Made by a program: the position numbers and the translations under genes. A DNA stretch of 64,000 bases from Acholeplasmataceae bacterium (lineage in GTDB: Bacteria; Bacillota_I; Bacilli_A; Acholeplasmatales; Acholeplasmataceae), in assembly GCA_963675245.1 (NCBI GenBank), contig OY775910.1:864001-928000 (forward strand), in the 5' to 3' direction. Below, piece after piece: positions 11,463 to 50,167 of the stretch (position 1 is the first letter of the stretch; every line of letters starts with the position of its first letter). The notes under the pieces were generated by a model that made no database searches, was not told where the DNA came from, and worked only from the letters and a program-made list of their open reading frames with translations.

Positions 11463-11475
11463 AAGGGAAAACAAC

Positions 11476-27502: not shown

Positions 27503-28990
27503 TTGACTATATTTGGAGAATTAAAAAGAAGAATAAAACTGAATAAAAATAGACTAAAAGATCCCACATATTGTGCGCCACTCATATTTGATCAAAATCA
27601 TGAATGGCCTGGTGATTGGCAAGGGAGAGCTATTTTAGCATTGGCTAATCATTATGCTGTCTCAACAAATTATGATGACAAAATATCAATTAAAAATCAA
27701 CTAGATGATATCATAACACAATTAAAAAACCATTTGAATAAAGATGGTTATTTTGGACCTTTATTAGACTTGAATCGAATTAACGAACAGCAAATTGCTG
27801 GAAACAGTTGGTTCTTAAGAGGACTTTGCGAATATCAAATTCTCTTTAGGGATCAGTATTCAAAGAGATTGATTCATCAAATTGTTGATCACTATTTATT
27901 AAAACTTGTTGATGCATATCAAACATATCCTAATATCAAAAGAGAAGATGGTGGTGTCGGAGGTCATTTATTGAAAATGACATATAATCACTGGCAGCTA
28001 TCCTCAGATGTAGGTTGTGCTTTTATAATGTTGGATGGTGTTTCACAAGTATATGAAATTACACGCGATCATCGATTAGTGCAATTAATCAATGTGATGA
28101 TTAAAAATTTCATGACATTGGATTTATTAGCGTCAAACTGTCAAACCCATGCAACTTTATCTGCTACCCGTGGCATGATGCGTTATTATAGACTCACAAA
28201 AAATGAGAGTATTCTTTCCCGTGTCATTAAAGTGTTTACATTATATGTTAATGAAGGCATGACGATTAATTACGCAAACATTAATTGGTTTGGTAAATCT
28301 TCATGGACCGAACCTTGTGCTGTCGTAGATAGTTTTATTTTAGCAAAGCAGTTATATGAAGTAACAAATAAGTACGATTATTTAGAACTCATGAATCGTA
28401 TTTATTATAATGCAATTTTAGTGGGTCAAAGAAGTAATGGTGGTGCTGGATGTGAAACATGTCTTTTATCGCATGATGATGAGTTTAAGATTCATACTTA
28501 TGAGGCTTATTTCTGTTGTAGCATGCGTCTAGCGGAAGGTTTAAGAGAAGTAGCTGATAGTATCATGATTGCAAACGCTAATGGTGTTACGTTAGCCATT
28601 ATGAATTCCATTAAGAAGTATCAAATATATCGTCATAACATCGAAATTTATGTCAACTTTAAAAAAGGTACGATATCAACACTTAATATTCGCATTAATA
28701 ATCCTCAACACATTGAAGGTGAGTTAGGCATCTATCTTCCAAAAGGAACGATGGTAGTATCTGCATCATCCGTATTATCTAAAGATGATTTAATACACAT
28801 CCCATTTACAACGACACACTTTGTACTGAACTTCAAGTATGTTTCAAGAATAGAGACAATTAAAAGCGTGAATGTTCAAATGCTTGGTGATTATATTTTG
28901 ATGACATCACAGAGTCACAAGCATTCTCATATGACAGATTATACACAACTCAGCGAGGAACAAGCACTTAAGGATATTCAAAAGCTATAA
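27503..28990 (+). CDS. GH127/GH146-like (beta-L-arabinofuranosidase family) glycosidase
   Basis: HATLS, TEPC and YFCC match the Glu/Cys3 Zn site of the family. RBS GAGGT favours TTG 27503. Confidence 0.7.
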   Translation: MTIFGELKRRIKLNKNRLKDPTYCAPLIFDQNHEWPGDWQGRAILALANHYAVSTNYDDKISIKNQLDDIITQLKNHLNKDGYFGPLLDLNRINEQQIAGNSWFLRGLCEYQILFRDQYSKRLIHQIVDHYLLKLVDAYQTYPNIKREDGGVGGHLLKMTYNHWQLSSDVGCAFIMLDGVSQVYEITRDHRLVQLINVMIKNFMTLDLLASNCQTHATLSATRGMMRYYRLTKNESILSRVIKVFTLYVNEGMTINYANINWFGKSSWTEPCAVVDSFILAKQLYEVTNKYDYLELMNRIYYNAILVGQRSNGGAGCETCLLSHDDEFKIHTYEAYFCCSMRLAEGLREVADSIMIANANGVTLAIMNSIKKYQIYRHNIEIYVNFKKGTISTLNIRINNPQHIEGELGIYLPKGTMVVSASSVLSKDDLIHIPFTTTHFVLNFKYVSRIETIKSVNVQMLGDYILMTSQSHKHSHMTDYTQLSEEQALKDIQKL

Positions 28991-29020
28991 AAAAGACAGT
29001 TTCATAGACTGTCTTTTTTT
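28989..29020. terminator. Bidirectional intrinsic terminator
   Basis: AAAAAAGACAGT-ttcatag-ACTGTCTTTTTT between convergent genes. Confidence 0.85.
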
Positions 29021-29032
29021 ATTTCATCAACA

Positions 29033-30241
29033 CTAACTATCTTTAATCTTGCTTGCTTTCAATGTCTCACAAAATTGAATGGTTGAAAATATATCTTTAT
29101 TATCTAAATAATTATAAATAGTTATAATCGATTGAATATCTTTTTTATCAGTCATGCCTGTATAAGTTATAATTGCTTGTCTTAAGTCAGACTTAGCATC
29201 ATGATAAACAGATTGACTGGATAAGTCATCTTCCTGCTTAAAGAGTAATGCGCCAGCTATACCAATCAATAAAAATGAATAAGGGACCTGATGCTTTTTA
29301 CAGAGATTTATTGAACCTGTGATACGATCATTTGGTGCAAGTTTTCTTTTTGGATCCCTGCCAACCCTAGCAATAGTATCTTTTAACTTATGATTATTAA
29401 AACGGTAAATCAATCGATCATAAAATTGAATCAATTCCTTTAATGGAAAATCACCAGCAGAAATAGCTTGAGCGGATTCTATACCACATGAATAGGTACA
29501 GTACTTAATCTCTGAGTCATTGATTGCCTCATGAATATATTGATAACCCTTTAGTGCACCTAAATATGCGGTAACGGCATGACCCATGTTATGCATAAAC
29601 AATTTTCTTTGAATATATGCTTCAAAAGGTGCATAAGCAATCATGTTTCTAATTTTTGGTATATCGCCAACATAACCATCTTTATCAGTATGTAGAATTT
29701 CAAATTCTTCGACCGTAATATCTGTTGGGTATTTTTGTTCTGACATCACCGGAACCATTCTTCCTATTGATGCTTCAACCAAACCAACTTTAGATAATAT
29801 ATGTTTTGCATCAGATTTTAGTTCTATTGATAACAAATCTTTCATATATGTATTAACATACATGAGATTCTCGCATAGTAAAATATTAAGGACATTTTTC
29901 TTATCTTTATCTCTTAACAATAAACCTTTTGCGATAAGCGGTGTTATATATTTAATAATATTCGCACCAACAGCAGTAGCCATAATATCGCAATCTGCAA
30001 TTTTCTTAATGGCTTGCTCCTCGTTGGTTATTGTATTAATAGCACGAATGTTTTTGATAGTTATTTGGTTTGTTTGATGGTTTGAAACAGTGGTAACTGT
30101 ATATTGCTTATCTTTATTTAATGTATTAATGATCGCATCATTAATGTCTAAAAAGATAACTTCATAACCAGACTGTGATAATAACTGACCAATGAAACCT
30201 CTACCTATATTTCCTGCACCATACATCACGGCTTTTTTCAT
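29033..30241 (-). CDS. mtlD: Mannitol-1-phosphate 5-dehydrogenase family protein
   Basis: GAGNIGRGFIG, TAVG, CEN, GRMVP, RKLFMHNMGHA and RVGRDPKRKL. Confidence 0.8.
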   Translation of the reverse strand: MKKAVMYGAGNIGRGFIGQLLSQSGYEVIFLDINDAIINTLNKDKQYTVTTVSNHQTNQITIKNIRAINTITNEEQAIKKIADCDIMATAVGANIIKYITPLIAKGLLLRDKDKKNVLNILLCENLMYVNTYMKDLLSIELKSDAKHILSKVGLVEASIGRMVPVMSEQKYPTDITVEEFEILHTDKDGYVGDIPKIRNMIAYAPFEAYIQRKLFMHNMGHAVTAYLGALKGYQYIHEAINDSEIKYCTYSCGIESAQAISAGDFPLKELIQFYDRLIYRFNNHKLKDTIARVGRDPKRKLAPNDRITGSINLCKKHQVPYSFLLIGIAGALLFKQEDDLSSQSVYHDAKSDLRQAIITYTGMTDKKDIQSIITIYNYLDNKDIFSTIQFCETLKASKIKDS

Positions 30242-30262
30242 ATATACCTTTCAACTAAACAA

Positions 30263-32731
30263 TTAGACACCTTTTTTGGCTTTCCTTAATTGTTCAGCCA
30301 CAGAATTGTTTTGTTTACTGACATGTCCTTTTAAAGGTAGAATCTTATCATTGATAGCGTCGATAATCCAATCTGCTTGAGGGAAGAAGGTAGCATCAAA
30401 TTCATACGGTGGTGTTATCCAATTCTTTGCACCTACAACAACTGGTGGACCATCTAAATAATCAAATGCCATTTCTGAAATGTTTCTTGCAAAATCATTT
30501 AAGATGGAACCTCTTGCACACGCATCACTTGCTAAAACAATTCGCCCTGTTTTTTTAACAGATTCAATGACTTGTTCATAATTAAAAGGAACGATACTTC
30601 TAGCATCAATCACTTCAGCAGAAACACCATATGTTTCTTCTAATTGTTTAGCCGCTTCCATCGCGTGATATAAGGTTGCACCAATGGTTAAGATTGTGAC
30701 ATCGGAACCTACACGTTTAATGTTTGGTTCACCAAGTGCAATTTCATAATATTCTTCTGGCACACCTGAATCAACAAACTCCTCGCCTTTGTCATATATT
30801 CTTTGTGACTCAAAGAAGACCACTGGATCAGTACCATTGAGTGCGGCATTCATCATACCTTTTGCATCATATGGAGTCACAGGAAATGCTACTTTTAATC
30901 CAGGTACATGAGCCGGTAGCGCTACCCAGTCTTGAGAATGTTGGGCACCATATTTAGAACCAATAGATACTCTTAAAATGACAGGCATCTTTAAGACACC
31001 ACTACTCATCGCTTGCCATTTAGCAAGTTGGTTAAATATTTCATCACCTGCACGTCCCATAAAGTCGGCATACATCAGTTCAATGATGACACGACCACCA
31101 CTTAATCCATAACCAACAGCAGTTGAGACAATCGCTGCTTCAGATATTGGACTATTGAATAATCTATGATAAGGAAGTGCTTCAGTTAAACCTCTGTAAA
31201 CAGCGAATGCGCCACCCCAGTCTCTCACATCTTCACCATAGGAAATCAGTGTTGGATCTTTATAGAAACGGTCGATAATCGCTTCAAAAAGACCATCTCT
31301 GATATTGTATTGTTTTATTTTAGGAATCAATTTACCTTGTTCATCATACGCATAACGAACACGTGATTTAAGTAATTTAACACGGGGGTTTTCTTCATAT
31401 GGTAATAAGAAATCACCTTTTCTAGTAGTGTCAAAAGATTCAACAGCACCATTGCTAAACATAAGTGATTCTACGTAATGAGGATTTTGATCTAAATCAA
31501 GATATGGTGATTTTTCAATATCAGAAGCGACTAAGAATAAGCGATACATTCTATCTTTAACGGCATTTAGGATATCTTCAAATTCACTATCTTTTGCAAT
31601 TTTAGCATCTACAAGTTCTTTTCTAAATGTAATCAGTGGATCGATTGCTTCCCACGCATCAATTTCTTCCTTTGTACGATAACTCATCGCGTCTGATGGT
31701 GAATGTCCACCAAATCGATAAGTGACGACATCTAAGAAAACAGGTCCTTTACCTTCTTTGATAATTTCCATTTTACGTTTATAAGCATCAATCACTGCTA
31801 ACACATTAAACCCATTGATGCGTTCTGTGTGTAATTGGGTTGGACTAATTCCTGCACCAAGTCGAGCAACGAAATCATTAGCCATCGTTTCGCCTCTGGT
31901 TTGACCACCCATACCATATCCGTTATTAAATATATTAAAGATGATTGGAAGACCACTTTGTTCATCCCATAGTTGTGTGAATTGATCCATTGCTGCAAAG
32001 TTAAGTGATTCATAAACGACACCACAACCAAGTGAACCATCACCGACATTAGCGATGACAACGCCATTTTTATGATTAACTCTTTTAAATAGGGCAGCAC
32101 CTGTAGCAATTGGCGCAGAACCACCAACGATTGCGTTATTTGGGTAAATACCAAAAGGTTGGAAGAAGACATGCATACTACCACCCATACCTTTATGGAA
32201 TCCTGTTCTTTTTGCAAAGATTTCAGCTAATGTACCATACAATAAAAAATCAATAGCAAGATCTTTTGAACTCGCATCAGGACTTTCATGTTTAACAACG
32301 TGATATGTTTCCCCATCTTCATAGTTGACCATGATGTCATTCAATGCAGATTCATCTAGTTTATGGATAGAGACTAAACCCCTCGCAAGTACTTCACTAT
32401 GACTTCGATGTGAACCAAATGTTAAATCGTCTTTTTCAAGTAGATAGGCTTGACCAACAGAAGCAGCTTCTTGCCCCATTGATAAATGAGCTGGTCCAGG
32501 ATAAGTAAATTTAAATCCATTGTACTCACCTTTAACTTTAATCGAATAGAGCATACTTTCAAATTCTCTTAATGTTGCCATATCGTGAAACATTCTTAGG
32601 AAATCAGCTTTACTAAATTGTTCTTTTTCATCATTAACAGTCTTATCATAGACGTTTACTGGAATATCTTCGAATGTGATTTTACCTTTTTTTAGCACCT
32701 CTTCAGGATGTATAAATAATGATTTTGGCAT
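30263..32731 (-). CDS. ThDP-dependent 2-oxoacid/acetoin dehydrogenase E1, fused alpha and beta subunits
   Basis: Alpha: HLSMGQEA, HRSH, GGSMH, GDG...NN and YRFGGHS. Beta: GEDV, PISE and GAQHSQ. Confidence 0.9.
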   Translation of the reverse strand: MPKSLFIHPEEVLKKGKITFEDIPVNVYDKTVNDEKEQFSKADFLRMFHDMATLREFESMLYSIKVKGEYNGFKFTYPGPAHLSMGQEAASVGQAYLLEKDDLTFGSHRSHSEVLARGLVSIHKLDESALNDIMVNYEDGETYHVVKHESPDASSKDLAIDFLLYGTLAEIFAKRTGFHKGMGGSMHVFFQPFGIYPNNAIVGGSAPIATGAALFKRVNHKNGVVIANVGDGSLGCGVVYESLNFAAMDQFTQLWDEQSGLPIIFNIFNNGYGMGGQTRGETMANDFVARLGAGISPTQLHTERINGFNVLAVIDAYKRKMEIIKEGKGPVFLDVVTYRFGGHSPSDAMSYRTKEEIDAWEAIDPLITFRKELVDAKIAKDSEFEDILNAVKDRMYRLFLVASDIEKSPYLDLDQNPHYVESLMFSNGAVESFDTTRKGDFLLPYEENPRVKLLKSRVRYAYDEQGKLIPKIKQYNIRDGLFEAIIDRFYKDPTLISYGEDVRDWGGAFAVYRGLTEALPYHRLFNSPISEAAIVSTAVGYGLSGGRVIIELMYADFMGRAGDEIFNQLAKWQAMSSGVLKMPVILRVSIGSKYGAQHSQDWVALPAHVPGLKVAFPVTPYDAKGMMNAALNGTDPVVFFESQRIYDKGEEFVDSGVPEEYYEIALGEPNIKRVGSDVTILTIGATLYHAMEAAKQLEETYGVSAEVIDARSIVPFNYEQVIESVKKTGRIVLASDACARGSILNDFARNISEMAFDYLDGPPVVVGAKNWITPPYEFDATFFPQADWIIDAINDKILPLKGHVSKQNNSVAEQLRKAKKGV

Positions 32732-32742
32732 TGTAATTCCTC

Positions 32743-34113
32743 CTATATATGAAATAAAGCATCTTTAACAAGCTCACCAACTGTTGGATGAGGATAGATG
32801 ATTCGTTTCATTTCTTCAATATTAATTTCAAGGTGCATCATCGCACTCAAGAAAAGTGAAATTTCACTTGCATAAAGCGAAAGCATATGCGCACCAAGTA
32901 GGGTGTTTCTTTTTTGATCAACCACGAGTTTAACAAAACCGTCGTGGTCATTTGATTCAGCTAAATGTCTTCCGGAATAAGAGACAGGTAAAGAAATGAC
33001 TTTAACATCATATCCTTTTTCTTTAGCGACCAACTCCGTATAACCAATACTACATACTTCAGGAGAAGTATATATCACAGATGGTATCTTATCGTAATTG
33101 ATAACGTCTTTTTTACCTAGAAGGGTGTTGATACAAACTTCAGCTTCTTTATATGCTGTATGAGCTAACATGACTTTACCGTTAACATCACCAATCGCAT
33201 ACACGTTCGCAACATTTGTCTTTGTTTGATCATCTGTGATGATTGAACCATTTTTACGTGTGTCAATATATAGGTTTTCTAATCCAAGTTCACTTGTACT
33301 TGCACGTCTACCAACAGATAATAATGCGTAATCAAAGGTGACTGATTCTTCTTGATTGTCTTGGACATACGTCAGTTCTTTTTCAGATACCTTGGTTACT
33401 TTCGCATTTAATTTAAATGTGATGCCTTGTGATTCTAATACTTTTTTAAGTGCTTTTGAAATATCTAGATCAAGTGGTCCGCCAATGGTTGGTAACATTT
33501 CAACTACAGTTACTTTACTCCCTATTTGGGCAAAGTAAGTTGCCATTTCAAGACCAATAACTCCTCCACCAATCACAGTCAGATTTTTAGGAATATCGGT
33601 TAAATCTAATATTTCTCTACTTGTTAAAATCGAACCTTTTTTAATGGCTTCAGCCAATCCTTCGATGGGTGGAATCACCGGTGAAGAACCACTAGCAATA
33701 ATCAGTTTAGTTGAGACATAAATATCACTACCCACTTGGACTTTAAAGCCTTCATTATCTTTTTTAAGAATAGTAGCTAAACCTGAGACAACTGTAACCT
33801 TAGCTGTTTTCAATGTATATCCAACACCAGCAACAAGTGTTTTAACAATGTTGTTTTTACGTTGAACAACTTCCTTTTGATTATAAGTTACATCATTTGC
33901 ATAAACACCATAACTTTCGCCATGCTTTGCATAACGGAAGTGCTTTGCGCTATTTAATAATGCTTTACTTGGAATGCAACCTTCATTCAAACACACGCCA
34001 CCAAGTTTATGCTTCTCGATAACTAATGTTTTTAAACCAGCTTTACCAGCAAGGTCTGCAGCATGATAACCACCAGGACCACCACCGATAATGATTAAAT
34101 CGTAATTATTCAT
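32743..34113 (-). CDS. lpdA: Dihydrolipoyl dehydrogenase (E3)
   Basis: GGGPGGY, GGVCLNEGCIPSK, MLAH and HPTVGE. Confidence 0.95.
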   Translation of the reverse strand: MNNYDLIIIGGGPGGYHAADLAGKAGLKTLVIEKHKLGGVCLNEGCIPSKALLNSAKHFRYAKHGESYGVYANDVTYNQKEVVQRKNNIVKTLVAGVGYTLKTAKVTVVSGLATILKKDNEGFKVQVGSDIYVSTKLIIASGSSPVIPPIEGLAEAIKKGSILTSREILDLTDIPKNLTVIGGGVIGLEMATYFAQIGSKVTVVEMLPTIGGPLDLDISKALKKVLESQGITFKLNAKVTKVSEKELTYVQDNQEESVTFDYALLSVGRRASTSELGLENLYIDTRKNGSIITDDQTKTNVANVYAIGDVNGKVMLAHTAYKEAEVCINTLLGKKDVINYDKIPSVIYTSPEVCSIGYTELVAKEKGYDVKVISLPVSYSGRHLAESNDHDGFVKLVVDQKRNTLLGAHMLSLYASEISLFLSAMMHLEINIEEMKRIIYPHPTVGELVKDALFHI

Positions 34114-34123
34114 GATAAACTCC

Positions 34124-35350
34124 TTATTTTAAACCTTTAGGGTCACTATCGATATGTTTAGAAAATGCTTGTAGATATTCTTTTAAGTCTTTTAAAAATC
34201 TAGAAGCACCAGCACCGTCAAGTACTTGATGATCATATGTGAGTGATAATCCCATTGCTTGATAGAATACAAAGCGACCGTGTTCATCGGTTTTAACTTT
34301 TGTTGAAATAGTATTGACACCTAAAATACCAGTTTGAGGTGGGTTAATAATTGGAGTGAAGTGTTCAATATCCAACGTCCCAAGATTTGAAATTGTAAAT
34401 GATGCATTCGTTAATAAATCGGGATTAATATTGCCAGCGATACATTGAGAAAAGAGTGATTTTGCTTGATTGGAAATATCAACAAGACTCAATGTGTCAG
34501 CATATTGCAACGTCGGTACCATAAGACCTCTTGGTGTATCGGTAGCAATCCCCATATGAACATGTTCGAAAACACGTAATTCACCATTAACGAAGTGTGC
34601 ATTTAAATCCATATGTTTCTTTAAGACTCTAGATACAGCATAAATCATAATATCGTTAAATGTGATTCTAGGTAATGATTGTTGTTCTGATATCCTTTTA
34701 AGTTCTTTTCGATAACTAAATATATCAGTCGCGTCAAATGATAAAGAGTGTGTGAGCTGTGCCGTATTTTGCAAGCTCTTCATCATCGTCTTACCAATAA
34801 TCTTACGCATATTAGAAAGTGATTTAACGGTATAGTCTTGTGTGCCACTTACTTGAACAACTGCAGTACCAACATTTTCAAGAGATACATCACGGTCAAT
34901 CACACGTCCACCTGGACCACTACCTTTGATCGTTTGAATATCTATGTTTTGTTTTTGTGCTTTAACTTTTGCACGAGGACTTGCGAAATGTTCACTTGAG
35001 GAATCTGATTCAACGATGTCTTCAACTTGAATAGACGCAGATGCTTTAGGTTGATCAACTTGAGAAGCCTCCTCGTTAGAAGAAGTAGGTGAGTCAACAT
35101 CGATTTTTTCACCTGGTTCACCAATATAACAAACAGGGGTTAAGACATCGACAATTTCACCTTCTTTGTATAGTAACTTTAAAACAGTGCCTTCAACTTC
35201 TGATGGAAAATCAAAAACTGCTTTATCTGTTTCGTAGCTAAAAAGAATCGTACCGACTTCAATGTTATCATTTTCTTTCACGTGCCAAGCGCTTAAAAAA
35301 CAGCTCTCAACGGTATTACCTTGTTTTGGCATTAATACTGGATTTGCCAT
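34124..35350 (-). CDS. Dihydrolipoamide acyltransferase (E2)
   Basis: Lipoyl domain ETDKA, subunit-binding domain ASPRA...GSGPGGRV, TISNLG and DHQVLDG. Confidence 0.92.
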   Translation of the reverse strand: MANPVLMPKQGNTVESCFLSAWHVKENDNIEVGTILFSYETDKAVFDFPSEVEGTVLKLLYKEGEIVDVLTPVCYIGEPGEKIDVDSPTSSNEEASQVDQPKASASIQVEDIVESDSSSEHFASPRAKVKAQKQNIDIQTIKGSGPGGRVIDRDVSLENVGTAVVQVSGTQDYTVKSLSNMRKIIGKTMMKSLQNTAQLTHSLSFDATDIFSYRKELKRISEQQSLPRITFNDIMIYAVSRVLKKHMDLNAHFVNGELRVFEHVHMGIATDTPRGLMVPTLQYADTLSLVDISNQAKSLFSQCIAGNINPDLLTNASFTISNLGTLDIEHFTPIINPPQTGILGVNTISTKVKTDEHGRFVFYQAMGLSLTYDHQVLDGAGASRFLKDLKEYLQAFSKHIDSDPKGLK

Positions 35351-35352
35351 AA

Positions 35353-36621
35353 TTACACCTCAATCTTTTTTCCGTGTTTAAGTAAATAAGATTCTGCTTC
35401 AACACTCCATAAACCATCATGACGATCACAAATGTTTGCAAGCTCAGCAAAAAGCGGATCGTTTTCGCCAAGTTTTCTAAAATCACTAATATCTGTCATA
35501 GGCATAGAAATATGTGTATAAACTAATTTTTTAGCACCAGGGATTTGTGGCAAATTGAGTGTCGTATCAATCACTGAATCAAGACCACCTACATGAGAAA
35601 TCATAATTTCTGGATGTAGTCTTCCTTTCGCAAACATATCTAGCACTTCTTTCATATCATTCGTGTTACCACCAGAAGTTCCGGTTAAGCGATGTCCTTC
35701 GTAATGTAATTTATAAAAATTAAAGTTTGCTGAAAAGTTAGGATCACTTGGGCCGGCAAAGAAATTTAGACAACCCATTTTAGCCAACAATTGGTTAGCT
35801 TGCTCGACTAAAAATTTTACTGGTGCGAATACAAAAACATCATCATACCCTTCTCCTTGATTAAACGCTTTTAATTGTTCAACTGGATTGTCAAAAGAAC
35901 TTGTATTTATATAGCGTAATTCAATACCTTTTTCTTTAGCGTCACTTGGTCTAACTAATGCTGCTGCTCGATCTAATCTTTCTTGATTAACATCTGTAAC
36001 GACAAGCAGACGAGGTGTAATGTCACGATTTACTGCATAAGCGATTGCCGCTAACCCCATTGGACCACCACCAGCAATAATAATCATGGCACCATCTTTT
36101 TTGATATCCATTTCATGCATATGTGTATCAAAGTTGGATCTAAAGTTTTCATGGAATGCACCTGCAACACATGAAAATGGTTCAGCTAAAGATCCCGAAA
36201 AATAACCTTCACCCTCATATGGCAATAAACATTCCTGAATCATGACCACTTCAGGAATGACAATATAAGTCGCATCTCCACCAATATATTCAAAAGAATA
36301 GCCTGGGGCATCTAAACTGCCTTTATAGTTTAAAGCTGGTTGAATAGAATATTTGTCACCAGGTTTGTATTGTTCTTTCCATTTGTCACCTACTTCGATA
36401 AGTTCTAGACAAAACTCATGACCGATAATCGTAGGATGAGTAGAGATATTATTTGGTACGCGTTTATGATCTTCTCCTTGATTAGCAGCTTTATAAGAAG
36501 ACATGCAGATGCTATCTGAAATAACTTTAGCAAGTATTTCAGTTGTCTTTATGTCTGGTAAATCAAATGTTTCTAATCGTAAATCTTTTTTTCCATAAAT
36601 TCTTACAGCAGTAGTTTTCAT
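35353..36621 (-). CDS. sorE: L-sorbose-1-phosphate reductase-like Zn-binding dehydrogenase
   Basis: SDSICMSSYKA...HKRVP...GHE, IQPAL, GGGPMG, NFFAGP and GTSGG are SorE-family features. GAGGT RBS supports start 36621. Confidence 0.75.
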   Translation of the reverse strand: MKTTAVRIYGKKDLRLETFDLPDIKTTEILAKVISDSICMSSYKAANQGEDHKRVPNNISTHPTIIGHEFCLELIEVGDKWKEQYKPGDKYSIQPALNYKGSLDAPGYSFEYIGGDATYIVIPEVVMIQECLLPYEGEGYFSGSLAEPFSCVAGAFHENFRSNFDTHMHEMDIKKDGAMIIIAGGGPMGLAAIAYAVNRDITPRLLVVTDVNQERLDRAAALVRPSDAKEKGIELRYINTSSFDNPVEQLKAFNQGEGYDDVFVFAPVKFLVEQANQLLAKMGCLNFFAGPSDPNFSANFNFYKLHYEGHRLTGTSGGNTNDMKEVLDMFAKGRLHPEIMISHVGGLDSVIDTTLNLPQIPGAKKLVYTHISMPMTDISDFRKLGENDPLFAELANICDRHDGLWSVEAESYLLKHGKKIEV

Positions 36622-36730
36622 ATTAGTTACCTCGCAGTATTCTAGTTTATCACAATAGTATTTTACTATAACAATCAAAAAAATGTTTATAATGTTCAAT
36701 TCGTTGTAAAATCATCTTTTTAATGATAAA

Positions 36731-36774: not shown

Positions 36775-37536
36775 GTGTCATATTTGGAAAGACAAGATGA
36801 TATATTGAATATTTTATCCAATGAAAAAGTAGTAAGTGTCCAGAAATTATCTGCAACATTATATGTCAGTGAAGCTACCATAAGAAGAGATTTGATCCGA
36901 ATGGATAATTTAGGATTAATTAGACGCACACATGGTGGCGCGATGATTGCTAAAAATACGGCACAAGAATCATCGTTCGCGATGCGTGAAGTAGAAAACC
37001 TATCTGCAAAAAAATTATTATGTTCACTGGCGTTAGCACACATCACTGATCACAGTGTGATTTATATGGATAGTAGTTCAACAGTGATGCCAATCATTCC
37101 TATGCTTCAAAGATTTCAACATTTAACAGTAATTACACACGGCATCAGAACAGCACTTCTTTTATCGAACCTCGAAAATGTAGAGGTTTATGTGGCCGGT
37201 GGAAGATTAGGAAATTTTTCAAACTCAATTTTGGGACAATCCGTTATTGAGTTTTATGATCAGATTAATGCTGACATTGCATTATTGTCATGTAGTGGCA
37301 TTGATGAAAAGGGAGATATTACAGATAACAGCATGGAACAAGCAAAAATTAAAAAGCAGATTGTAGATAAAAGTAAAAAGGTCATTATGTTGGCCGATCA
37401 AACGAAATTTGGTAAAACATTTATGAATACAACTTTCCAACTACAAGATGTTGATATATTTATCACAGATAAAGATATGCCTGAAACATTTATAGAAGTC
37501 TTTAATCAGTATGAAGGAGAAGTGATTAAACCATAA
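36775..37536 (+). CDS. DeoR/GlpR family transcriptional regulator
   Basis: VSEATIRRDL...RTHGGA HTH plus DeoRC sensor domain (DSSST, LADQTKFG). Confidence 0.93.
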   Translation: MSYLERQDDILNILSNEKVVSVQKLSATLYVSEATIRRDLIRMDNLGLIRRTHGGAMIAKNTAQESSFAMREVENLSAKKLLCSLALAHITDHSVIYMDSSSTVMPIIPMLQRFQHLTVITHGIRTALLLSNLENVEVYVAGGRLGNFSNSILGQSVIEFYDQINADIALLSCSGIDEKGDITDNSMEQAKIKKQIVDKSKKVIMLADQTKFGKTFMNTTFQLQDVDIFITDKDMPETFIEVFNQYEGEVIKP

Positions 37537-37563
37537 AAAAAGGAACTTTTCGTTCCTTTTTTT
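37535..37563. terminator. Bidirectional intrinsic terminator
   Basis: AAAAAAAGGAAC-ttttc-GTTCCTTTTTTT. Confidence 0.8.
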
Positions 37564-38341
37564 AATGCATTATTTGTCCACCTGTGACATTGATTGCTTG
37601 ACCAGTCATGTAGCTTGAGAGATCTGAAGCCAAGAAGACGACCATGTTTTCAATGTCTTCATATTCACAACTGCGTTTGAGTGGGACTTGATTGATATAT
37701 TTTTCTCTAATCTTTTCTTCAGTGGTATGTTGGTTTTGAGCATATTGTTTAAACAAGCTATTCACCCAGAGTGGTGAATTCAAAAGATTACCAGGACAGA
37801 TACTGTTAACTCTAACGTTAAACTCAGCAAACTCTTTAGCTAGACTTTGAGTTAAACCGATACCACCAAACTTACTTGCTGCATATGCACCATTTTTATA
37901 AGAACCCACCTTGCCAGATTTACTATTAATTTGGATGATAGAGCCTTTGCGGTTTTCAATCATCATCGGTGCGAATGCTTTAACAGTATTGAAATAGCCA
38001 TTTAGGTTGACATCAATAACCTTTTTAAAATGAGCAGAAGAAAGCGTGTTAATATCTCCACTTAATAAAATGCCAGCATTTGATACGAGAATATCAACTC
38101 GACCAAATTTAGATTTAACATCATTCGCAACACTCTCACATTGTTCATAGTTTGTGATATCAAGCGCATATGGATATGCATTCTCTATATCAGAACAAAC
38201 TTTTTTTACACCTTCATAGTTGATATCACAAGCGATGACAGTACAACCTTCATTTGATAATCTAAGTGCAATTGCTTCACCTAAACCTTGTGATACGCCA
38301 GTGACAACAGCGACTTTGTCTTTCAAATTTATTTCACTCAT
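37562..38341 (-). CDS. srlD: Sorbitol-6-phosphate 2-dehydrogenase-like SDR
   Basis: SrlD signature IQINSKSGKVG...YAASKFGGIGLTQSLA, plus GNLLNSP and TGQAINVTGGQ. Confidence 0.85.
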   Translation of the reverse strand: MSEINLKDKVAVVTGVSQGLGEAIALRLSNEGCTVIACDINYEGVKKVCSDIENAYPYALDITNYEQCESVANDVKSKFGRVDILVSNAGILLSGDINTLSSAHFKKVIDVNLNGYFNTVKAFAPMMIENRKGSIIQINSKSGKVGSYKNGAYAASKFGGIGLTQSLAKEFAEFNVRVNSICPGNLLNSPLWVNSLFKQYAQNQHTTEEKIREKYINQVPLKRSCEYEDIENMVVFLASDLSSYMTGQAINVTGGQIMH

Positions 38342-39591
38342 TTTAAAGCCTCTTTTCTTGCATATGAACTAAAGAACTTAATACGTTCACTAATGGACAT
38401 ATGCTGATATGTATTTCCTAACAATCCATCTTCAGGATTTTTTTTATATAATTTTTCATGTGCAACTAACGCCCAAGCGGAATCAATTAAATGATGATGT
38501 TTTGGATATTGATAAGCAGAACAATTAAAACTTTGTCTAGGTGAATTGATATCTTCTCCGGATATTTCAATCATATGATATTTATGTGCTAAGGCATGAA
38601 TACGATCGATTTGTTCTTCTGTATTTCTGGTTGGCATATATGCAATGGCAGGTACGCCAATCTCTTTTAATGCGATAATTAATTCTTCTAAAAATGCATC
38701 TTCAAATGTTTGTGCTCTTTTATCACCAGTAACTGATTCAACAACATCACCTAAATACGGATAAGCCGGGATTGCACCATGTGCTTTAGCAAACGCAACA
38801 TATTCCTTCGCATCTGGTAACTCATCTGTCGCAGGAATGAAGAATTTTGAAGTGTTTGATTTAATGACACCTAAAATATCATATAGCAATAAGTCGTTAT
38901 TTTTAGATAGAAGTAATGCTCTTTGTTTCTTTGATACCTTGATTTCAAATGTTTGCGATACGTAGTCAATTAATTGATTCATGTCAGTGAAATGATGAAG
39001 TAATTTTTGTGCTAAAGCAAATAGTATGTGCCTTTCTGTTACAGTGCCACCCTCTTCAACCTTAGAAATAGATTGTACATCGCGTTTATAATCTAGCACA
39101 ATATCAGAAGATGCGATTAACCGATTGACTTTATCTACAATTAAACGATTTCTTTTTTCACGATTATCACGATAAGGTTTTAAAAATACATCAAATGAAG
39201 CAATGCTTTCTTCTGGGATGGCATGCGCCACCATATACATCACATTATTCTGATCAGGGTTATTGATCCTACGATTAAAGGTATCAAATTTAACACGTAA
39301 TTCTACACCAGCAGTTGAAGCGATACCTAGTAAATCAGAAGCGTCATGAAATTCTTTAATGCCTGCAACAGTATCATGATCAATAATACCTGCAACACTT
39401 AAACCGGCTTGATATGCACTATAAGCTGCATGTGTTGGTGAATACGGTGAAAAGGAATAAAACGTATGGATGTGATTATTCACATCATGTTCATTAATTT
39501 CTCTAACAGCATTGTGGTAACTGAGTATTTCTTCGAGTGCACTGATGCGATCAGATAATATGCCTTCGTTTAGTTTATTGATAATTTTCAT
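38338..39591 (-). CDS. PHP domain-containing protein
   Basis: NHIHTFYS, IIDHD and GVE motifs; ATGA overlaps with both neighbouring genes. Confidence 0.75.
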   Translation of the reverse strand: MKIINKLNEGILSDRISALEEILSYHNAVREINEHDVNNHIHTFYSFSPYSPTHAAYSAYQAGLSVAGIIDHDTVAGIKEFHDASDLLGIASTAGVELRVKFDTFNRRINNPDQNNVMYMVAHAIPEESIASFDVFLKPYRDNREKRNRLIVDKVNRLIASSDIVLDYKRDVQSISKVEEGGTVTERHILFALAQKLLHHFTDMNQLIDYVSQTFEIKVSKKQRALLLSKNNDLLLYDILGVIKSNTSKFFIPATDELPDAKEYVAFAKAHGAIPAYPYLGDVVESVTGDKRAQTFEDAFLEELIIALKEIGVPAIAYMPTRNTEEQIDRIHALAHKYHMIEISGEDINSPRQSFNCSAYQYPKHHHLIDSAWALVAHEKLYKKNPEDGLLGNTYQHMSISERIKFFSSYARKEALK

Positions 39592-40685
39592 TTACTTTGC
39601 ACCTTAAACCTGTAATGTTCAACTTCCCAATTCAATATGAAATTAATGTCATCATCTGTCATTGGTTTAGATCCACCGAAATACTGACTATAGTATCCAA
39701 TTTTTATTTGATCAAGAAATAGAAGTCTCGCATTTTCGGATTGTTTTTGACTATCACCTACCGCATACATACCAGATCCTTTGAGCAGTATAATGCGTGG
39801 TGGGAAGCCAAATTTGTCAATATATGTCTGATATGTTAATTGTAAATTATCAAACGATGTATAAAGTGGTTCGTGTCGGCAATACACCACATGATCTGGC
39901 GTAAATGATGTTCTGACTTTTTGATAAGAAGAAGGGTTTTCTAGAATATCATCTATGGCATGATTCTTCTCAAATGTCACATATTTATGCACATCAAGTG
40001 ATTTGATGGCAGACAGATGAATATCAAAGATAGCTTTATCTAAAGATGTTTTTGACAAGTCAATATCAGATTTAATTTGTTGATTAATCTTAGCCATTAA
40101 AGCATCAACTAATTGGTCAATTTCTTCTATACTATCAGCTGCGAAGAACACACCATGATTCTCTAAGAGAAGTATTTGAGGTATCACATGATGCTTTTTT
40201 TCATGTGCTTCCATTTTTTCTTTACAGGTTATCGCTAGTATATATCCTGGTTTAGTCGCTTCTACCCATACGACGTTATGTGATAAATGATTTTCAACCC
40301 AAGATTCACCAGATAGACCACATGTTACGGCATTTACTTTTGTTGGATGTAGATGTAATACAAATTTAAAGGGAAATAAGTCATGTAGCTGTGTTTCAAC
40401 AGAAGGTCTATTTATTTCACCCTCACATCTCGCATCCATGAGATCTTTTAAAACTTCCTTTTCACGATTCGATGTTTGATCGCTATAGGTCACATGCCAC
40501 ATATGATTAAGCTTCTTACGATCAAGTTTAACAAAGCCATCTTCTTTAATCGTTGCTAGTTGATAACCACTTGCTTTTACAATCAATGTGTTATCATCTT
40601 TAGCACTTGTATTTCCACCACCAGCTAAAACAAATTCTGATTGAGCACCATATTTGTTGGACATTTTTATTAATTCGGTTAACAT
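39588..40685 (-). CDS. Class II aldolase/adducin family protein (rhamnulose-1-phosphate aldolase-like, RhaEW N-domain type)
   Basis: GGGNTS, KASG, PSVETQLH, HLHP, ENHG, TPDHVVY and WEVEHYR. Confidence 0.8.
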   Translation of the reverse strand: MLTELIKMSNKYGAQSEFVLAGGGNTSAKDDNTLIVKASGYQLATIKEDGFVKLDRKKLNHMWHVTYSDQTSNREKEVLKDLMDARCEGEINRPSVETQLHDLFPFKFVLHLHPTKVNAVTCGLSGESWVENHLSHNVVWVEATKPGYILAITCKEKMEAHEKKHHVIPQILLLENHGVFFAADSIEEIDQLVDALMAKINQQIKSDIDLSKTSLDKAIFDIHLSAIKSLDVHKYVTFEKNHAIDDILENPSSYQKVRTSFTPDHVVYCRHEPLYTSFDNLQLTYQTYIDKFGFPPRIILLKGSGMYAVGDSQKQSENARLLFLDQIKIGYYSQYFGGSKPMTDDDINFILNWEVEHYRFKVQSK

Positions 40686-40926: not shown

Positions 40927-40953
40927 TGAAAAGAGACAACAGGAGTGATAGTT

Positions 40954-42270
40954 ATGAAAAGTGTAAGAATCGCTATTGATATTGGTGCGAGTGGTGGTAG
41001 GCATTTAGCGTATTATATCGAAAATGGTAAAGATATTTATGAAGAAGTTTACCGCTTTAAAAACTACATGTCAGGAACACCAGAATATAGTTTAATTTGG
41101 GATTATCAACGCTTAGTTGATAATGTCTTCAAAGGATTAAAAATTGCTTTTGAGACATATGATGAAGTCCTATCGGTTGGTCTTGATACATGGGGTGTAG
41201 ATTATGCATTGCTCGATGAAAAAAAAGAGGTTATTAAGCCTGTTTTTGCATATCGGAATCCCAGAACTGAAGCAATCATAAAAGAAGTGCATGAGATTAT
41301 TTCGTTTGAAAAATTATATGAAATTACAGGTTCACAATTCCAGTCTTTTAACACAATTTACCAATTATATTGTGATAAAAAAAGCGGTAAATTAGATAAA
41401 GCTAAACACTTTTTAATGATGCCGGAATTCTTATATTACAAATTAACTGGTCTGATGTTGCAAGAGTATACAGAAACGAGCACTTCAGGTATGATTGATT
41501 TAAAAACGAATGATTTTTCAACTGAAATAATTGAAAAATTAAGTTATCCAAAACACTTATTTGATAAACCTGTTCAACCAGGGATTTTCCATCCTTTAGC
41601 TGAAGATGTTTCCAAAGCTTTAGGTGGTCAAACTAAAGTTTGTTTAGTGGCTACACATGATACTGCAAGTGCAGTTGAAGGGGTGGATATTGATCTTAAT
41701 CAAGCATACTTATCAAGTGGTACTTGGTCATTATTAGGTATGAAAGTAAAAGAACCGATTTTGACAGAAATAGCCAGAGAAAATAATTTCTCTCATGAAG
41801 GTGGCATTGGTTATATCAGATTCCAAAAAAACATCATGGGATTATGGATGACACAGTTTTTAAAAAATGAATTAGGTTATGATGATTATTTTCAAATGGC
41901 GGATGATGCAAGTTGCTCCACATGTTGTGAATTGATTGACGTTAATGATGAGTCATTTCTAGCTCCAGTATCCATGAAAGATGCGATTTTTGATTATTTA
42001 AAAAAGCATCATAAAAAGCTACCGGAAACAAATGGCGATATTTTAAATGTGGTTTACCACAGTTTAGCAAAATCATATGAAGATGCATTAGATGAACTAG
42101 AAGAAATAACAGGCAAAAAAATAGAAACCTTAACCATATTTGGTGGGGGTGCACAAAACAAATATTTTAATAAAGTGATTAAGAAATATTCAACCAGAGA
42201 TTTAGTGATACATCCAATAGAAGCAACCGCTATTGGAAATTTAAGAGTACAGGAGAAATATGATGAGTAG
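40954..42270 (+). CDS. rhaB: Rhamnulokinase
   Basis: AIDIGASGGR, DTWGVDY, NTIYQL, THDTASAV, SSGTWSLLG, KNIMGLW and EATAIGN; adjacent to rhaA. Confidence 0.9.
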   Translation: MKSVRIAIDIGASGGRHLAYYIENGKDIYEEVYRFKNYMSGTPEYSLIWDYQRLVDNVFKGLKIAFETYDEVLSVGLDTWGVDYALLDEKKEVIKPVFAYRNPRTEAIIKEVHEIISFEKLYEITGSQFQSFNTIYQLYCDKKSGKLDKAKHFLMMPEFLYYKLTGLMLQEYTETSTSGMIDLKTNDFSTEIIEKLSYPKHLFDKPVQPGIFHPLAEDVSKALGGQTKVCLVATHDTASAVEGVDIDLNQAYLSSGTWSLLGMKVKEPILTEIARENNFSHEGGIGYIRFQKNIMGLWMTQFLKNELGYDDYFQMADDASCSTCCELIDVNDESFLAPVSMKDAIFDYLKKHHKKLPETNGDILNVVYHSLAKSYEDALDELEEITGKKIETLTIFGGGAQNKYFNKVIKKYSTRDLVIHPIEATAIGNLRVQEKYDE

Positions 42271-43504
42271 ATTTGAAGATGCGAAGAAAATATATGAATC
42301 GTTTGGTGTCAATGTAGAACAGGCATTAGATACATTAAAAAAAATACCTATATCCATTCATTGTTGGCAAGGTGACGATGTTCGCGGGTTTGAATCTGAT
42401 GAACAAGCGTTAACGGGTGGCATTCAAGCAACAGGGAATTATCCAGGTCGTGCGCATGGATTCAAGGAATTAAGTAGAGATTTAGAAAAAGCATTCCAAC
42501 ATATTCCTGGTTCGAAACGCGTCAACTTGCATGCGATTTATGCTGTATCTGATAAACCCATTGGAAGAAATGATATTAAAAACGAACATTTTGATCCATG
42601 GTTAGAATTTGCGAAGAAAAACAATGTTAAATTAGATTTCAATCCAACCTTTTTCTCATCACCTATGGTAAAAGATAATCTAACATTATCTTCACCTGAT
42701 GAAGAAGTGAGATCTTTTTGGATTGAACATGGTGTCATTTCAAGAGACATCGCAGCATATATTGGTGAAAAACAAGAATCACCATGCTTATTTAATGTAT
42801 GGATTCCAGATGGTATGAAAGACACACCTGCTGATCGCGTTGGACCGCGATTAAGATTAAAAGATTCACTAGATAAAATCTTTAAGAAACCACTAAAAGA
42901 CGATGTTGTTATTGATGCTGTTGAGTCTAAAGTGTTCGGTATTGGATTAGAGTCGTATACGGTTGGTTCTCAAGAATTTTATATGAACTATGCACAACAA
43001 AAAGGCGTTTGTTGTCTCATTGATAATGGGCATTATCACCCAACTGAAAATGTTGCAGATAAATTATCATCCATGTTAATTTTTAATAAATATGTCGCAT
43101 TACATGTCACAAGACCTGTCCGCTGGGATAGTGATCACGTGGTCTTATTTGATGATATTACAAAAGATATCGCACGCGAAATCATTCAGTCAAAACAACC
43201 TGAACGTTTCTTAATTGGCCTCGATTATTTCGATGCGTCTATTAACAGAATTGCAGCTTGGATACTAGGTACAAGAAACTTCCAAAAAGCACTCTTACAA
43301 GCATTATTACTGCCACATGAATATATGACAAAACTTCAAAACAATGGTGAGTTCACTGAACTACTAGTTCTGAATGAAGAACTAAAAACATTACCATTTC
43401 ATGATGTTTGGGAAGCGTATTGTAAAAGTGAAAATGTATCACCAGACATGACTTGGTTTGATGATGTAAAAACATATGAGAAAGAGATTTTATCAAAACG
43501 TTAA
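42263..43504 (+). CDS. rhaA: L-rhamnose isomerase
   Basis: HCWQGDDV, NLHAIY, DFNPT, WIPDG, ESKVFGIG, GHYHPTE, RWDSDHV and DYFDASINR; start at 42260 or 42263. Confidence 0.95.
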   Translation: MSRFEDAKKIYESFGVNVEQALDTLKKIPISIHCWQGDDVRGFESDEQALTGGIQATGNYPGRAHGFKELSRDLEKAFQHIPGSKRVNLHAIYAVSDKPIGRNDIKNEHFDPWLEFAKKNNVKLDFNPTFFSSPMVKDNLTLSSPDEEVRSFWIEHGVISRDIAAYIGEKQESPCLFNVWIPDGMKDTPADRVGPRLRLKDSLDKIFKKPLKDDVVIDAVESKVFGIGLESYTVGSQEFYMNYAQQKGVCCLIDNGHYHPTENVADKLSSMLIFNKYVALHVTRPVRWDSDHVVLFDDITKDIAREIIQSKQPERFLIGLDYFDASINRIAAWILGTRNFQKALLQALLLPHEYMTKLQNNGEFTELLVLNEELKTLPFHDVWEAYCKSENVSPDMTWFDDVKTYEKEILSKR

Positions 43505-43562: not shown

Positions 43563-43639
43563 AAACACTGAAAGCACAATAAATTAAATGTGATAAAATA
43601 GTGGTGACTGAACAATTCAGTTTTATTTGGGAGAAAAAT

Positions 43640-44350
43640 ATGATTAGAATTGCTATTGTTGAGGATGATAAAAATTACATAAGTGAATTAAAGAAAATGC
43701 TAGCACAATATGAAAAAGAAAGTGGCCGAAAATTAATCGTCACTGTTTTTGATGATGGTGAAGATATTGCGATTGATTATAAAGCAGAATATGACATTAT
43801 TTTAATGGATATTGAAATGCGTTTCATGGATGGCATGACAGCGGCGACTAAAATCCGTGAAAAAGATAACGAAGTTATTTTAATCTTTATTACGAATATG
43901 CCGCAATATGTCATGGAAGGTTACAAAGTTGATGCGCTAGATTATGTGTTAAAACCTTTAACATATTTTTCGCTGTCGCAACGCATTGATCGTGCCTTAA
44001 TAAGAATGAAAAAAAGATTGACTAAATACATTACAATTCCGATTCATAATGGTATTCAAAAAATTGATGTCAATAAGATATATTTTATAGAAATGCATAA
44101 TCACGATGCTATTTTTCATACTGAAAATGGTGAATATGTACTAAGAGAATCATTAAGAATTTTAGAAAAGTTACTTGAGAAGGAATCATTTTATCGTTGC
44201 CATAAAAGTTTTATGGTTAATTTAGCTTATGTTGACTCGATTCAAGGTTGTGATATTTATATTAAAGACCAAATAATTCAAGTTAGTAGAAGTAAGAAAA
44301 AAGATTTTATCGATGCTTTAAATAACTATTTAAATGAGGTTAGTAAATGA
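43640..44350 (+). CDS. LytTR family response regulator
   Basis: IAIVEDD, MDIEM, DYVLKP and FYRCHKSFMVN. GGGAG RBS favours ATG 43640. Confidence 0.92.
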   Translation: MIRIAIVEDDKNYISELKKMLAQYEKESGRKLIVTVFDDGEDIAIDYKAEYDIILMDIEMRFMDGMTAATKIREKDNEVILIFITNMPQYVMEGYKVDALDYVLKPLTYFSLSQRIDRALIRMKKRLTKYITIPIHNGIQKIDVNKIYFIEMHNHDAIFHTENGEYVLRESLRILEKLLEKESFYRCHKSFMVNLAYVDSIQGCDIYIKDQIIQVSRSKKKDFIDALNNYLNEVSK

Positions 44351-50064: not shown

Positions 50065-50167
50065 TTCCATCTTATTAAGAAAGGTTTAATGATTTTTTAG
50101 AAAAGTCTCTTGAGAGTAGTAAATAAAAATGAGTAAAATAAAAAAATATATAGAAGGAGTAAACAAA

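Follow-up and report, generated by a model that had tools for sequence, protein, structure and literature searches.

Enzyme complexes that pass acyl groups over lipoamide are known for a short list of substrates, namely pyruvate, 2-oxoglutarate, the branched-chain oxoacids, acetoin and glycine. In the acetoin dehydrogenase system (AcoA/AcoB/AcoC/AcoL) acetoin, a methyl ketol, is cleaved oxidatively to acetyl-CoA and an aldehyde, and the pyruvate dehydrogenase (PDH) of Gram-positive bacteria (PdhA/PdhB/PdhC/PdhD) is likewise built from E1, E2 and E3 components. In the L-sorbose route, SorE and then SorF move the carbonyl group of a ketose 1-phosphate from C2 to C5. In the present study a stretch of 64,000 nucleotides from an Acholeplasmataceae bacterium (contig OY775910.1, positions 864,001 to 928,000; the window in what follows is this whole stretch) was analysed, in which the genes of a dehydrogenase complex with a fused alpha-beta E1 lie between a SorE-like gene and one resembling mtlD. 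It is our tentative reading, held at somewhat less than an even chance, that this complex is inducible, of the acetoin dehydrogenase kind, and serves the catabolism of a 6-deoxyhexose, here L-rhamnose, rather than the oxidation of pyruvate, with the substrates and the order of steps as we infer them below.

The operon occupies positions 29033-36621 of the minus strand and consists of five packed genes. In order of transcription these encode a SorE/YggP-like Zn-dependent ketose-1-phosphate reductase (35353..36621, 422 amino acids (aa) from its ATG), an E2 acyltransferase (34124..35350, 408 aa), an E3 dihydrolipoyl dehydrogenase (32743..34113, 456 aa, the second copy in the genome), the fused ThDP (thiamine diphosphate)-dependent E1 (30263..32731, 822 aa) and a mannitol-1-phosphate 5-dehydrogenase-like protein (MtlD-like; 29033..30241, PF01232 and PF08125), with intergenic gaps of 2, 10, 11 and 21 nt in the same direction. 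Coordinates and gene order were hence confirmed as an earlier, sequence-only reading of the DNA had given them (E2-E3-E1 between sorE and mtlD, gaps of 2-21 nt). The operon is closed by a bidirectional terminator-like hairpin (28989..29019, a 14-pair stem followed by a T run), and a DeoR-family regulator (36775..37536, plus strand, PF08220 and PF00455) is transcribed divergently from it. For the SorE-like open reading frame (ORF) a TTG start at 36699 had been listed, which adds 26 residues missing from the homologues of 420-423 aa; because these begin at the ATG, the shorter form was adopted. A promoter scan returned 56 sites against 58 expected from shuffled sequence and thus no excess, and inspection by eye of the two divergent intergenic regions for a common operator yielded just AT-rich words.

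The E1 carries the domains E1_dh, in two stretches, Transket_pyr and Transketolase_C (PF00676, PF02779 and PF02780) in one single chain, and its ThDP motif is intact and readable in the translation. In an alignment with the PdhA of the same genome, about 40-50 extra residues follow GSHRSH, 10-13 extra residues stand between GDG and NN of the ThDP motif, and a linker of about 60-70 residues lies ahead of the beta part. GSHRSH was found in 71 of 80 family members. Both insertions and the linker are kept across phyla, with a mean column identity of 70% in an alignment of 30 sequences, in which M134, G140, Y165 and E170 within the insertion are invariant; in the AlphaFold model, residues 111-171 are helical, with predicted local distance difference test (pLDDT) values of 87-94 over blocks 111-170. 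The insertion of about 45 aa after HRSH, the insertion in the ThDP motif and the long linker, to which the sequence-only reading had drawn attention, are therefore present, conserved across phyla and not a product of chance.

In the active site the catalytic histidine equivalent to H128-beta of the G. stearothermophilus PDH E1 (E1p) is kept. In the comparison with E1p, F82-beta aligns with Y554 and F85-beta with F557, and the loop that matches T124-P125 is two residues shorter in the fused E1. K593, Q597, Q600, D556 and R560 vary little or not at all across the 30 sequences, and together these residues might hint at a more polar site. No curated NCBIfam E1 cut-off was passed, the scores against the PDH E1 models being 146.4 for TIGR03181 (cut-off 411.35), 219.8 for TIGR03182 (393.85) and 229.6 for NF006667 (321). 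Sequence and fold searches of solved structures returned only generic relatives among E1 beta, E1 alpha, transketolase and DXPS proteins.

A protein search gave at least 7998 scored matches to the E1, of which the best 120 all measure 821-825 aa and are at least 73% identical. At least 403 species-representative genomes encode a relative, and the 80 best of the 403, 54-87% identical and full length where the contig permits, were used for the analysis of loci. These 80 belong to Bacillota, Bacteroidota, Spirochaetota, Acidobacteriota, Lentisphaerota, Planctomycetota, Calditrichota, Ignavibacteriota and other phyla, and identities within the family amount to 55-89% across Bacillota, Bacteroidota, Spirochaetota, Acidobacteriota, Lentisphaerota and others. 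Plasmid copies from Rhizobium, Agrobacterium and Pleomorphomonas are more distant (48.7-51.1%), and E1s of any other kind are about 30-35% identical. Other fused E1s, named 'bkdA' or 'dehydrogenase E1 component subunit alpha/beta', are likewise single-chain proteins, but that of an Arthrobacter plasmid is only 32.6% identical. The closest named protein is the 'alpha-ketoacid dehydrogenase subunit alpha/beta' of Peloplasma aerotolerans (87%). By its domains, its length, this identity, both insertions and the linker, the protein of the window belongs to the family of fused alpha/beta E1s of about 820 aa, and a distinct E1 subfamily, as had been proposed from the sequence, is borne out by its scores under all curated PDH E1 cut-offs and by its low identity to the genome's own PdhA (34% over 206 aa) and PdhB (35% over 316 aa). 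Judged by these comparisons, the fused E1 is to be regarded as a distinct, widespread and strongly constrained family. Database names of its members are generic ('alpha-ketoacid dehydrogenase subunit alpha/beta', 'dehydrogenase'), with '2-oxoisovalerate dehydrogenase E1 component' used by JGI for some. A search of the literature, subscription journals and supplements lying outside it, found no description of the function of this family or of a deoxyketose-phosphate dehydrogenase pathway. One matched range, L047:10001-12462 of a Bryobacterales metagenome-assembled genome (MAG), was excluded, as it holds 21 stop codons in the given frame, with a frameshift, an indel or a faulty assembly as the cause.

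The genome, a single contig of 1.63 Mb, also encodes a canonical split set of pdhA, pdhB, pdhC and lpdA, which ends about 15.6 kb before the start of the window (contig positions 841824-848430; L005:3824-10430) and whose PdhA passes TIGR03181 (474.1 against 411.35). The sequence-only reading had advised looking for a separate PDH, and with this set found the fused E1 is not the only PDH-type E1 of the genome; the fused-E1 complex is therefore an additional one. It is an accessory trait in the order: three of the 201 genomes sampled carry the E1, all three in the taxonomic family of the window, and none of eight congeners does, the three positives being too few for statistics on an order-wide phylogenetic profile. 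In the canonical set pdhA-pdhB-pdhC is separated from lpdA by a transposase gene of the IS110 family that runs on the other strand (L005:7634-8794), and lpdA may have lost the operon promoter through it.

The partner proteins agree with a lipoamide complex. In the E2, which carries the lipoyl (PF00364), E3-binding (PF02817) and catalytic (PF00198) domains, the lipoyl-lysine context is readable in the translation, and its scores lie below every E2 equivalog cut-off. The E3 passes the lipoamide dehydrogenase equivalog TIGR01350 (485.8 against 408.8), has the redox motif CLNEGC and the usual flavoprotein domains, and shares 42% identity with the LpdA of the canonical set; the genome encodes a lipoate ligase as well. 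With the domains of E1, E2 and E3 intact, the three genes are predicted to make up a complete lipoamide complex. The active-site motif DHQVLDG of the E2, which the sequence-only reading had singled out, is indeed there; as a hallmark of the E2 it does not hold, since among 72 E2s adjoining related E1s DHQ occurs in only 20, with DHR in 37, DHG in 3, DHK in 1 and no motif found in 11. With DHR as the commonest form, the glutamine is therefore a variant of the lineage and not a family trait.

Set beside the known systems, the complex resembles acetoin dehydrogenase in having an alpha/beta ThDP-dependent E1 of the E1_dh type together with its own lipoyl E2 and E3 in one cluster. The likeness is one of architecture and, as proposed here, of chemistry, and no curated AcoA/AcoB model appears among the NCBIfam matches of the E1. 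The differences lie in the fused E1 of 822 aa with its two conserved insertions and conserved linker, in the sugar kinases, SorE-like, MtlD-like and deoxyhexose genes that stand alongside in place of butanediol genes, and in the proposed leaving group, which would be a sugar phosphate and not acetaldehyde. With Gram-positive PDH it shares the three components, the Pfam domains, the catalytic histidine and the region of the ThDP-activating glutamate, from which it departs in the fused E1 and the order E2-E3-E1, in contrast to the split subunits of pdhABCD, as well as in its identity of 34-35%, its scores below the three PDH E1 models and its accessory distribution.

The genes next to the complex point towards sugar phosphates. 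Over 98-100% of its length the SorE-like enzyme shares 47-49% identity with E. coli yggP and with genes that plasmid records annotate as sorE, and some of its homologues are named 'L-sorbose 1-phosphate reductase'; among the NCBIfam matches of the protein there is no curated SorE hidden Markov model. The MtlD-like protein reaches at best 286 in NCBIfam (cut-off 356) and stays below the cut-offs of all nine MtlD models, so that it is not an MtlD equivalog. On the other side of the DeoR gene a second minus-strand operon encodes an aldolase-like protein (39588..40685, PF00596; class II, resembling the RhaE half of RhaEW), a metal-dependent phosphoesterase of the PHP family (38338..39591, weak PF02811) and a short-chain dehydrogenase/reductase (SDR) of the sorbitol-6-phosphate 2-dehydrogenase type (37562..38341). 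Of the 25 matches listed for this SDR, the sorbitol-6-phosphate dehydrogenase model NF009050 is the best and the only one above its cut-off (321.7 against 307), and models of butanediol/acetoin reductases also score. Divergent from the second operon, on the plus strand, are a rhamnulokinase-like FGGY kinase (40945..42270; TIGR02627 391.8, below the cut-off of 527.95) and the L-rhamnose isomerase RhaA (42260..43504; PF06134, 625 bits). Both operons lie inside a rhamnoside island with an alpha-L-rhamnosidase of glycoside hydrolase family 78 (GH78; 45929..48484, plus strand) and a rhamnosidase-like gene (12459-14723), both recognised by Pfam rhamnosidase domains, an AraC regulator, ABC permeases, a GH127-like gene and an MFS_2 transporter. 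The "sugar-phosphate operon" of the sequence-only reading was accordingly supported as a context, here and in other phyla, and is now refined to a part of an L-rhamnose/rhamnoside island.

In the aldolase-like protein, the only PF00596 member of the genome, E97, H111, H113 and H177 show no or almost no variation among 14 sequences; we take this glutamate and these three histidines to be the metal site of FucA/RhaD. A role as an AraD-like 4-epimerase was considered and is less likely, given that a glutamate metal ligand is found as in aldolases (the roles of these residues being our assumption); apart from this protein no AraD-type gene occurs in the genome. The PHP protein (model pLDDT 92.9) has H40, H42, D71, E97 and H188 as invariant residues, and its best folds are PHP phosphoesterases (3o0f, 9etk, 2yb1), the matches including BAD_1165, RNase AM and a nucleoside bisphosphate phosphatase. 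In RhaEW, a bifunctional rhamnulose-1-phosphate aldolase and lactaldehyde dehydrogenase of which B. subtilis YuxG is an example, a class II aldolase-like domain is likewise combined with an SDR in a rhamnose context, and the two are fused in 17 of the 80 loci, whereas in the window they are split by the PHP gene. Against the cut-off of 567.75 of the RhaEW model TIGR02632, the aldolase-like half of the window scored 92.2 and fused relatives 227-245 bits, and the SDR half of the fusions is closest to sorbitol-6-phosphate dehydrogenase; far below the cut-off and with an SDR half of this type, the fusions are not demonstrably RhaEW orthologues.

For the neighbourhoods of the relatives, ORFs were called in the 80 loci and clustered by BLAST, and one representative of each common cluster was run against Pfam and NCBIfam to give the cluster its name; as contig ends cut many of the loci, the numbers that follow are minimum values. 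An E2 was found in 69 loci and an E3 in 53, followed by a SorE-like Zn-dependent alcohol dehydrogenase (Zn-ADH; mean identity to that of the window 57%) in 35, a PHP-like protein and a DeoR regulator adjoining the complex in 25 each, an SDR in 18, the class II aldolase-SDR fusion in the 17 mentioned, lipoate ligase in 11, and a GntR regulator and a 343-aa transaldolase-like gene in nine each. Less frequent were the MtlD-like gene (six, and three more in a second cluster), fructose-6-phosphate aldolase (FSA) and a double class II aldolase (five each), RhaA (four) and the L-fucose isomerase FucI directly upstream of DeoR-E2-E3-E1 (three). In Bacteroidales and Clostridia the arrangement is regulator, E2, E3, E1, PHP, aldolase-SDR and Zn-ADH, with or without FSA; in Ignavibacteriota and Calditrichota it is DeoR, MtlD-like, E2, E3, E1 and Zn-ADH. 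P. aerotolerans carries a module of SorE-like, E2, E3, E1 and MtlD-like genes, in which the MtlD-like gene follows E1. In plasmid loci of Alphaproteobacteria (L086, R. johnstonii 3841 pRL8; L087, A. tumefaciens pAt15955; L088, Pleomorphomonas pSM30-1) a free lipoyl protein of 78 aa and an alpha/beta-fold hydrolase come after the E1 and take the place of the classical E2, and an E3 is absent from the cluster. The hydrolase, annotated acoC by Prokka in one record, presumably belongs to the acetoin-system type of E2. SorC-type regulators, FGGY/PfkB kinases, a mannitol-dehydrogenase-family gene, sugar ABC transporters, FucU/RbsD and lipA are located near these plasmid E1s. The cluster on pRL8 lies a few kb from homoserine-related genes, and the accessible part of a transcriptome paper on pRL8 does not mention it.

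At the level of genomes, RhaA occurs in 48 of the 80 hosts, FucI (over the cut-off) in 47 and either of them in 57, compared with four of 14 named control genomes. Many of the hosts are incomplete MAGs and the 14 named genomes are not taxon-matched to them, and the association of RhaA/FucI with E1 hosts is supportive only. Within the family of the window RhaA was found in four of 87 sampled genomes and the E1 in three; two genomes have both, about 10 kb apart in the second, although either gene by itself is rare in the family.

From this gene content the following course may be proposed. RhaA and the FGGY kinase would yield L-rhamnulose 1-phosphate, which the class II aldolase-like protein would split into dihydroxyacetone phosphate (DHAP) and L-lactaldehyde. 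A (3S,4R)-type aldolase (fructose-bisphosphate aldolase, FBA, or FSA) or a transaldolase would then join DHAP and L-lactaldehyde to 6-deoxy-L-sorbose 1-phosphate; alternatively, rhamnulose 1-phosphate might be used directly. The SorE-like enzyme would reduce C2 of the 6-deoxyketose 1-phosphate, and the SDR of the sorbitol-6-phosphate dehydrogenase type, or the MtlD-like enzyme in the case of a mannitol-configured isomer, would oxidise the carbon beside the methyl group. The expected product, a 1-deoxy-2-ketohexose 6-phosphate and most simply 1-deoxy-D-fructose 6-phosphate, would be barred from glycolysis, but would be a methyl ketol like acetoin. The ThDP of E1 would attack its C2 and cleave the bond between C2 and C3, releasing a tetrose 4-phosphate, in the simplest case D-erythrose 4-phosphate; the hydroxyethyl-ThDP would be passed oxidatively to the lipoyl arm of E2, where acetyl-CoA would be formed, and E3 would reoxidise the lipoamide with NAD+ to give NADH.

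Stereochemistry bears on the choice of entry. Direct entry of L-rhamnulose 1-phosphate or L-fuculose 1-phosphate would lead to D-threose or L-erythrose 4-phosphate. By way of 6-deoxy-L-sorbose 1-phosphate the later enzymes would see their native configuration, from 1-deoxy-D-glucitol 6-phosphate over 1-deoxy-D-fructose 6-phosphate to D-erythrose 4-phosphate, and the mannitol-configured isomer for the MtlD-like enzyme would derive from D-lactaldehyde. FSA can make 1-deoxy-D-fructose 6-phosphate from hydroxyacetone and glyceraldehyde 3-phosphate. The parallel to the L-sorbose route is found in a reductase 47-49% identical to SorE and an SDR that passes the sorbitol-6-phosphate model, corresponding to SorE and SorF/SrlD, with the difference that a sorbose phosphotransferase system was not seen here. 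The position of SorE/SrlD-like genes beside rhamnose genes and a dehydrogenase complex suggests a 6-deoxy substrate and a product unable to enter glycolysis as fructose 6-phosphate. The scheme would account for the links to RhaA and FucI, for the transaldolase and FSA genes and for the sugar-phosphate regulators.

Several observations weigh against it. The proposed steps leave the PHP phosphoesterase without a function. The genome lacks a transaldolase or FSA gene, so that erythrose 4-phosphate would need to exit via transketolase, of which there is one gene, and aldolase, with two class II FBA genes. Neither RhaA nor FucI is seen in 23 of the 80 host genomes, P. aerotolerans included (the accessible part of its species description lists no rhamnose test), and as the hosts are mostly polysaccharide degraders, the background rate of these isomerases is probably high. 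In Bryobacteraceae the locus consists only of a transaldolase-like gene, E2, E3 and E1. The aldolase-like protein could simply be RhaE, acting towards DHAP and lactaldehyde without a link to the complex. RhaEW enzymes are reported to form DHAP and lactate, and only with NAD+ present (PMC3870299), so that aldolase and SDR could do their work without the complex.

As the aldolase that would condense lactaldehyde, the second class II FBA of the island (11476-12330) was also considered, which was set aside as it lies in its own operon with an FGGY kinase and an AraA-type isomerase.

A rival view is that the complex is a second pyruvate or 2-oxoacid dehydrogenase, by which lactaldehyde from rhamnose would reach acetyl-CoA over lactate and pyruvate, in keeping with the lactate reported for RhaEW-type enzymes. 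The best curated matches of the E1 alpha part are PDH E1 alpha models, if all below the cut-off, the beta part too matches PDH E1 models best and superposes on the E1 beta of PDH and of branched-chain 2-oxoacid dehydrogenase, and the retained histidine fits as well. In addition, five Christensenellaceae/Clostridia MAGs (L035, L045, L046, L052, L058) have only E3, E2 and E1 beside PGK, TIM and iPGM; in all five of these small genomes the fused E1 is the sole full PF00676 gene, and a SorE-like gene is found in just two of them, amid housekeeping genes. With the only full E1 gene near glycolysis genes in five of five MAGs, pyruvate or another central substrate is conceivable there, and these genomes count against a deoxysugar role as well. 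(Their loci have a divergent E3, and the thiamine salvage genes ThiE and ThiM lie near some.) We nevertheless judge this explanation unlikely: the E1 misses every PDH equivalog cut-off, the canonical set is already present in the genome of the window, no part would fall to the regulators of the sugar-phosphate type or to the SorE-like, MtlD-like and transaldolase neighbours, and in Alphaproteobacteria the gene is carried by accessory plasmids, together with kinases and an E2 of the acetoin type.

A second rival is an oxidative transketolase, in which an ordinary ketose phosphate (fructose 6-phosphate, xylulose 5-phosphate or sedoheptulose 7-phosphate) would be converted to glycolyl-CoA and an aldose phosphate. 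Transaldolase or FSA genes in 14 of the 80 loci, xylulokinase-like kinases nearby and the single-chain PP-Pyr-C layout, which aligns with transketolases, speak for it, but glycolyl-CoA-handling genes were not seen in the neighbourhoods, routes for ordinary ketose phosphates already exist, and the links to RhaA, FucI and rhamnosidase together with the SorE-like/SrlD-like pair point to a methyl-bearing substrate. It thus appears rather improbable, and a deoxyketose-phosphate dehydrogenase agrees with the gene set better than does an oxidative transketolase of ordinary ketoses. A classical acetoin/2,3-butanediol system, with the Zn-ADH and the SDR as butanediol and acetoin dehydrogenases, agrees with the automatic acoB/acoC label on one relative, with the acetoin-type E2 of the Proteobacteria and with the scores of the SDR against butanediol/acetoin reductase models; yet the Zn-ADH is SorE-like at 47-49% and only weakly related to the solved butanediol dehydrogenase, the single above-cut-off match of the SDR is sorbitol-6-phosphate dehydrogenase, and the company consists of rhamnose and fucose genes, kinases and sugar-phosphate regulators, which makes such a system most improbable. 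Just as improbable, or slightly more so, is a small C3 carbonyl from the breakdown of deoxyhexose as the direct substrate of E1, either L-lactaldehyde, to give lactyl-CoA, or methylglyoxal or hydroxyacetone, to give acetyl-CoA and a C1 unit. Lactaldehyde is common to the rhamnose and fucose routes, the complex has links to RhaA as well as to FucI contexts, and the genome's only class II aldolase of PF00596 sits in the cluster; the SorE-like, MtlD-like and sorbitol-6-phosphate-dehydrogenase-type enzymes and the sugar-phosphate regulators would, however, be unexplained, and neither C1-handling nor lactyl-CoA genes were seen in the neighbourhoods.

Further features of the window lie outside the two operons. 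Just upstream of the first rhamnosidase, four plus-strand genes (7648-12330) encode an FGGY kinase, a 320-aa protein, an L-arabinose isomerase and the second class II ketose-bisphosphate aldolase; the kinase is xylulokinase-like below the cut-off, the isomerase passes NF002795, and the 320-aa protein is without an NCBIfam match. This run may represent a galactose/tagatose-type or an unusual pentose route. A LytTR response regulator is paired with a GHKL histidine kinase in the interval from RhaA to the GH78 rhamnosidase (43601-45684, plus strand), possibly as a second regulator of the island. An ORF of 876 aa (4771-7401, plus strand) contains a complete NADP-glutamate dehydrogenase in residues 428-875, and its first ca. 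430 residues, without an NCBIfam match, represent a long extension at the N terminus or else an upstream ORF that is read through. Finally, a GH3-family protein of 1463 aa (50129-54520, plus strand) displays a C-then-N domain order and contains a He_PIG Ig domain as well as, close to its C terminus, a collagen triple-helix repeat.

If the deoxyketose-phosphate reading of the fused-E1 complex is true, it would be the first complex of the 2-oxoacid dehydrogenase type with a sugar phosphate as its natural substrate, which would lengthen the list of lipoamide complexes and add a new fate for deoxyhexoses, which are abundant in pectin, fucoidan, mucin and the glycans of bacteria. Beyond the locus itself, it is possible, though we hold this wider claim with more doubt, that a widespread route exists in many phyla, by which all six carbons of L-rhamnose or L-fucose are burned, or lactaldehyde is salvaged, without excretion of 1,2-propanediol, through a carbonyl shift by SorE-like and SrlD/MtlD-like enzymes and subsequent cleavage by the fused E1 to acetyl-CoA and erythrose 4-phosphate. 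The fermentations of gut and sediment anaerobes would then be predicted to yield acetate and ATP in larger amounts and propanediol and propionate in smaller ones, and since the family is labelled only generically or as a branched-chain dehydrogenase, genome-scale models may in many cases be mistaken here.

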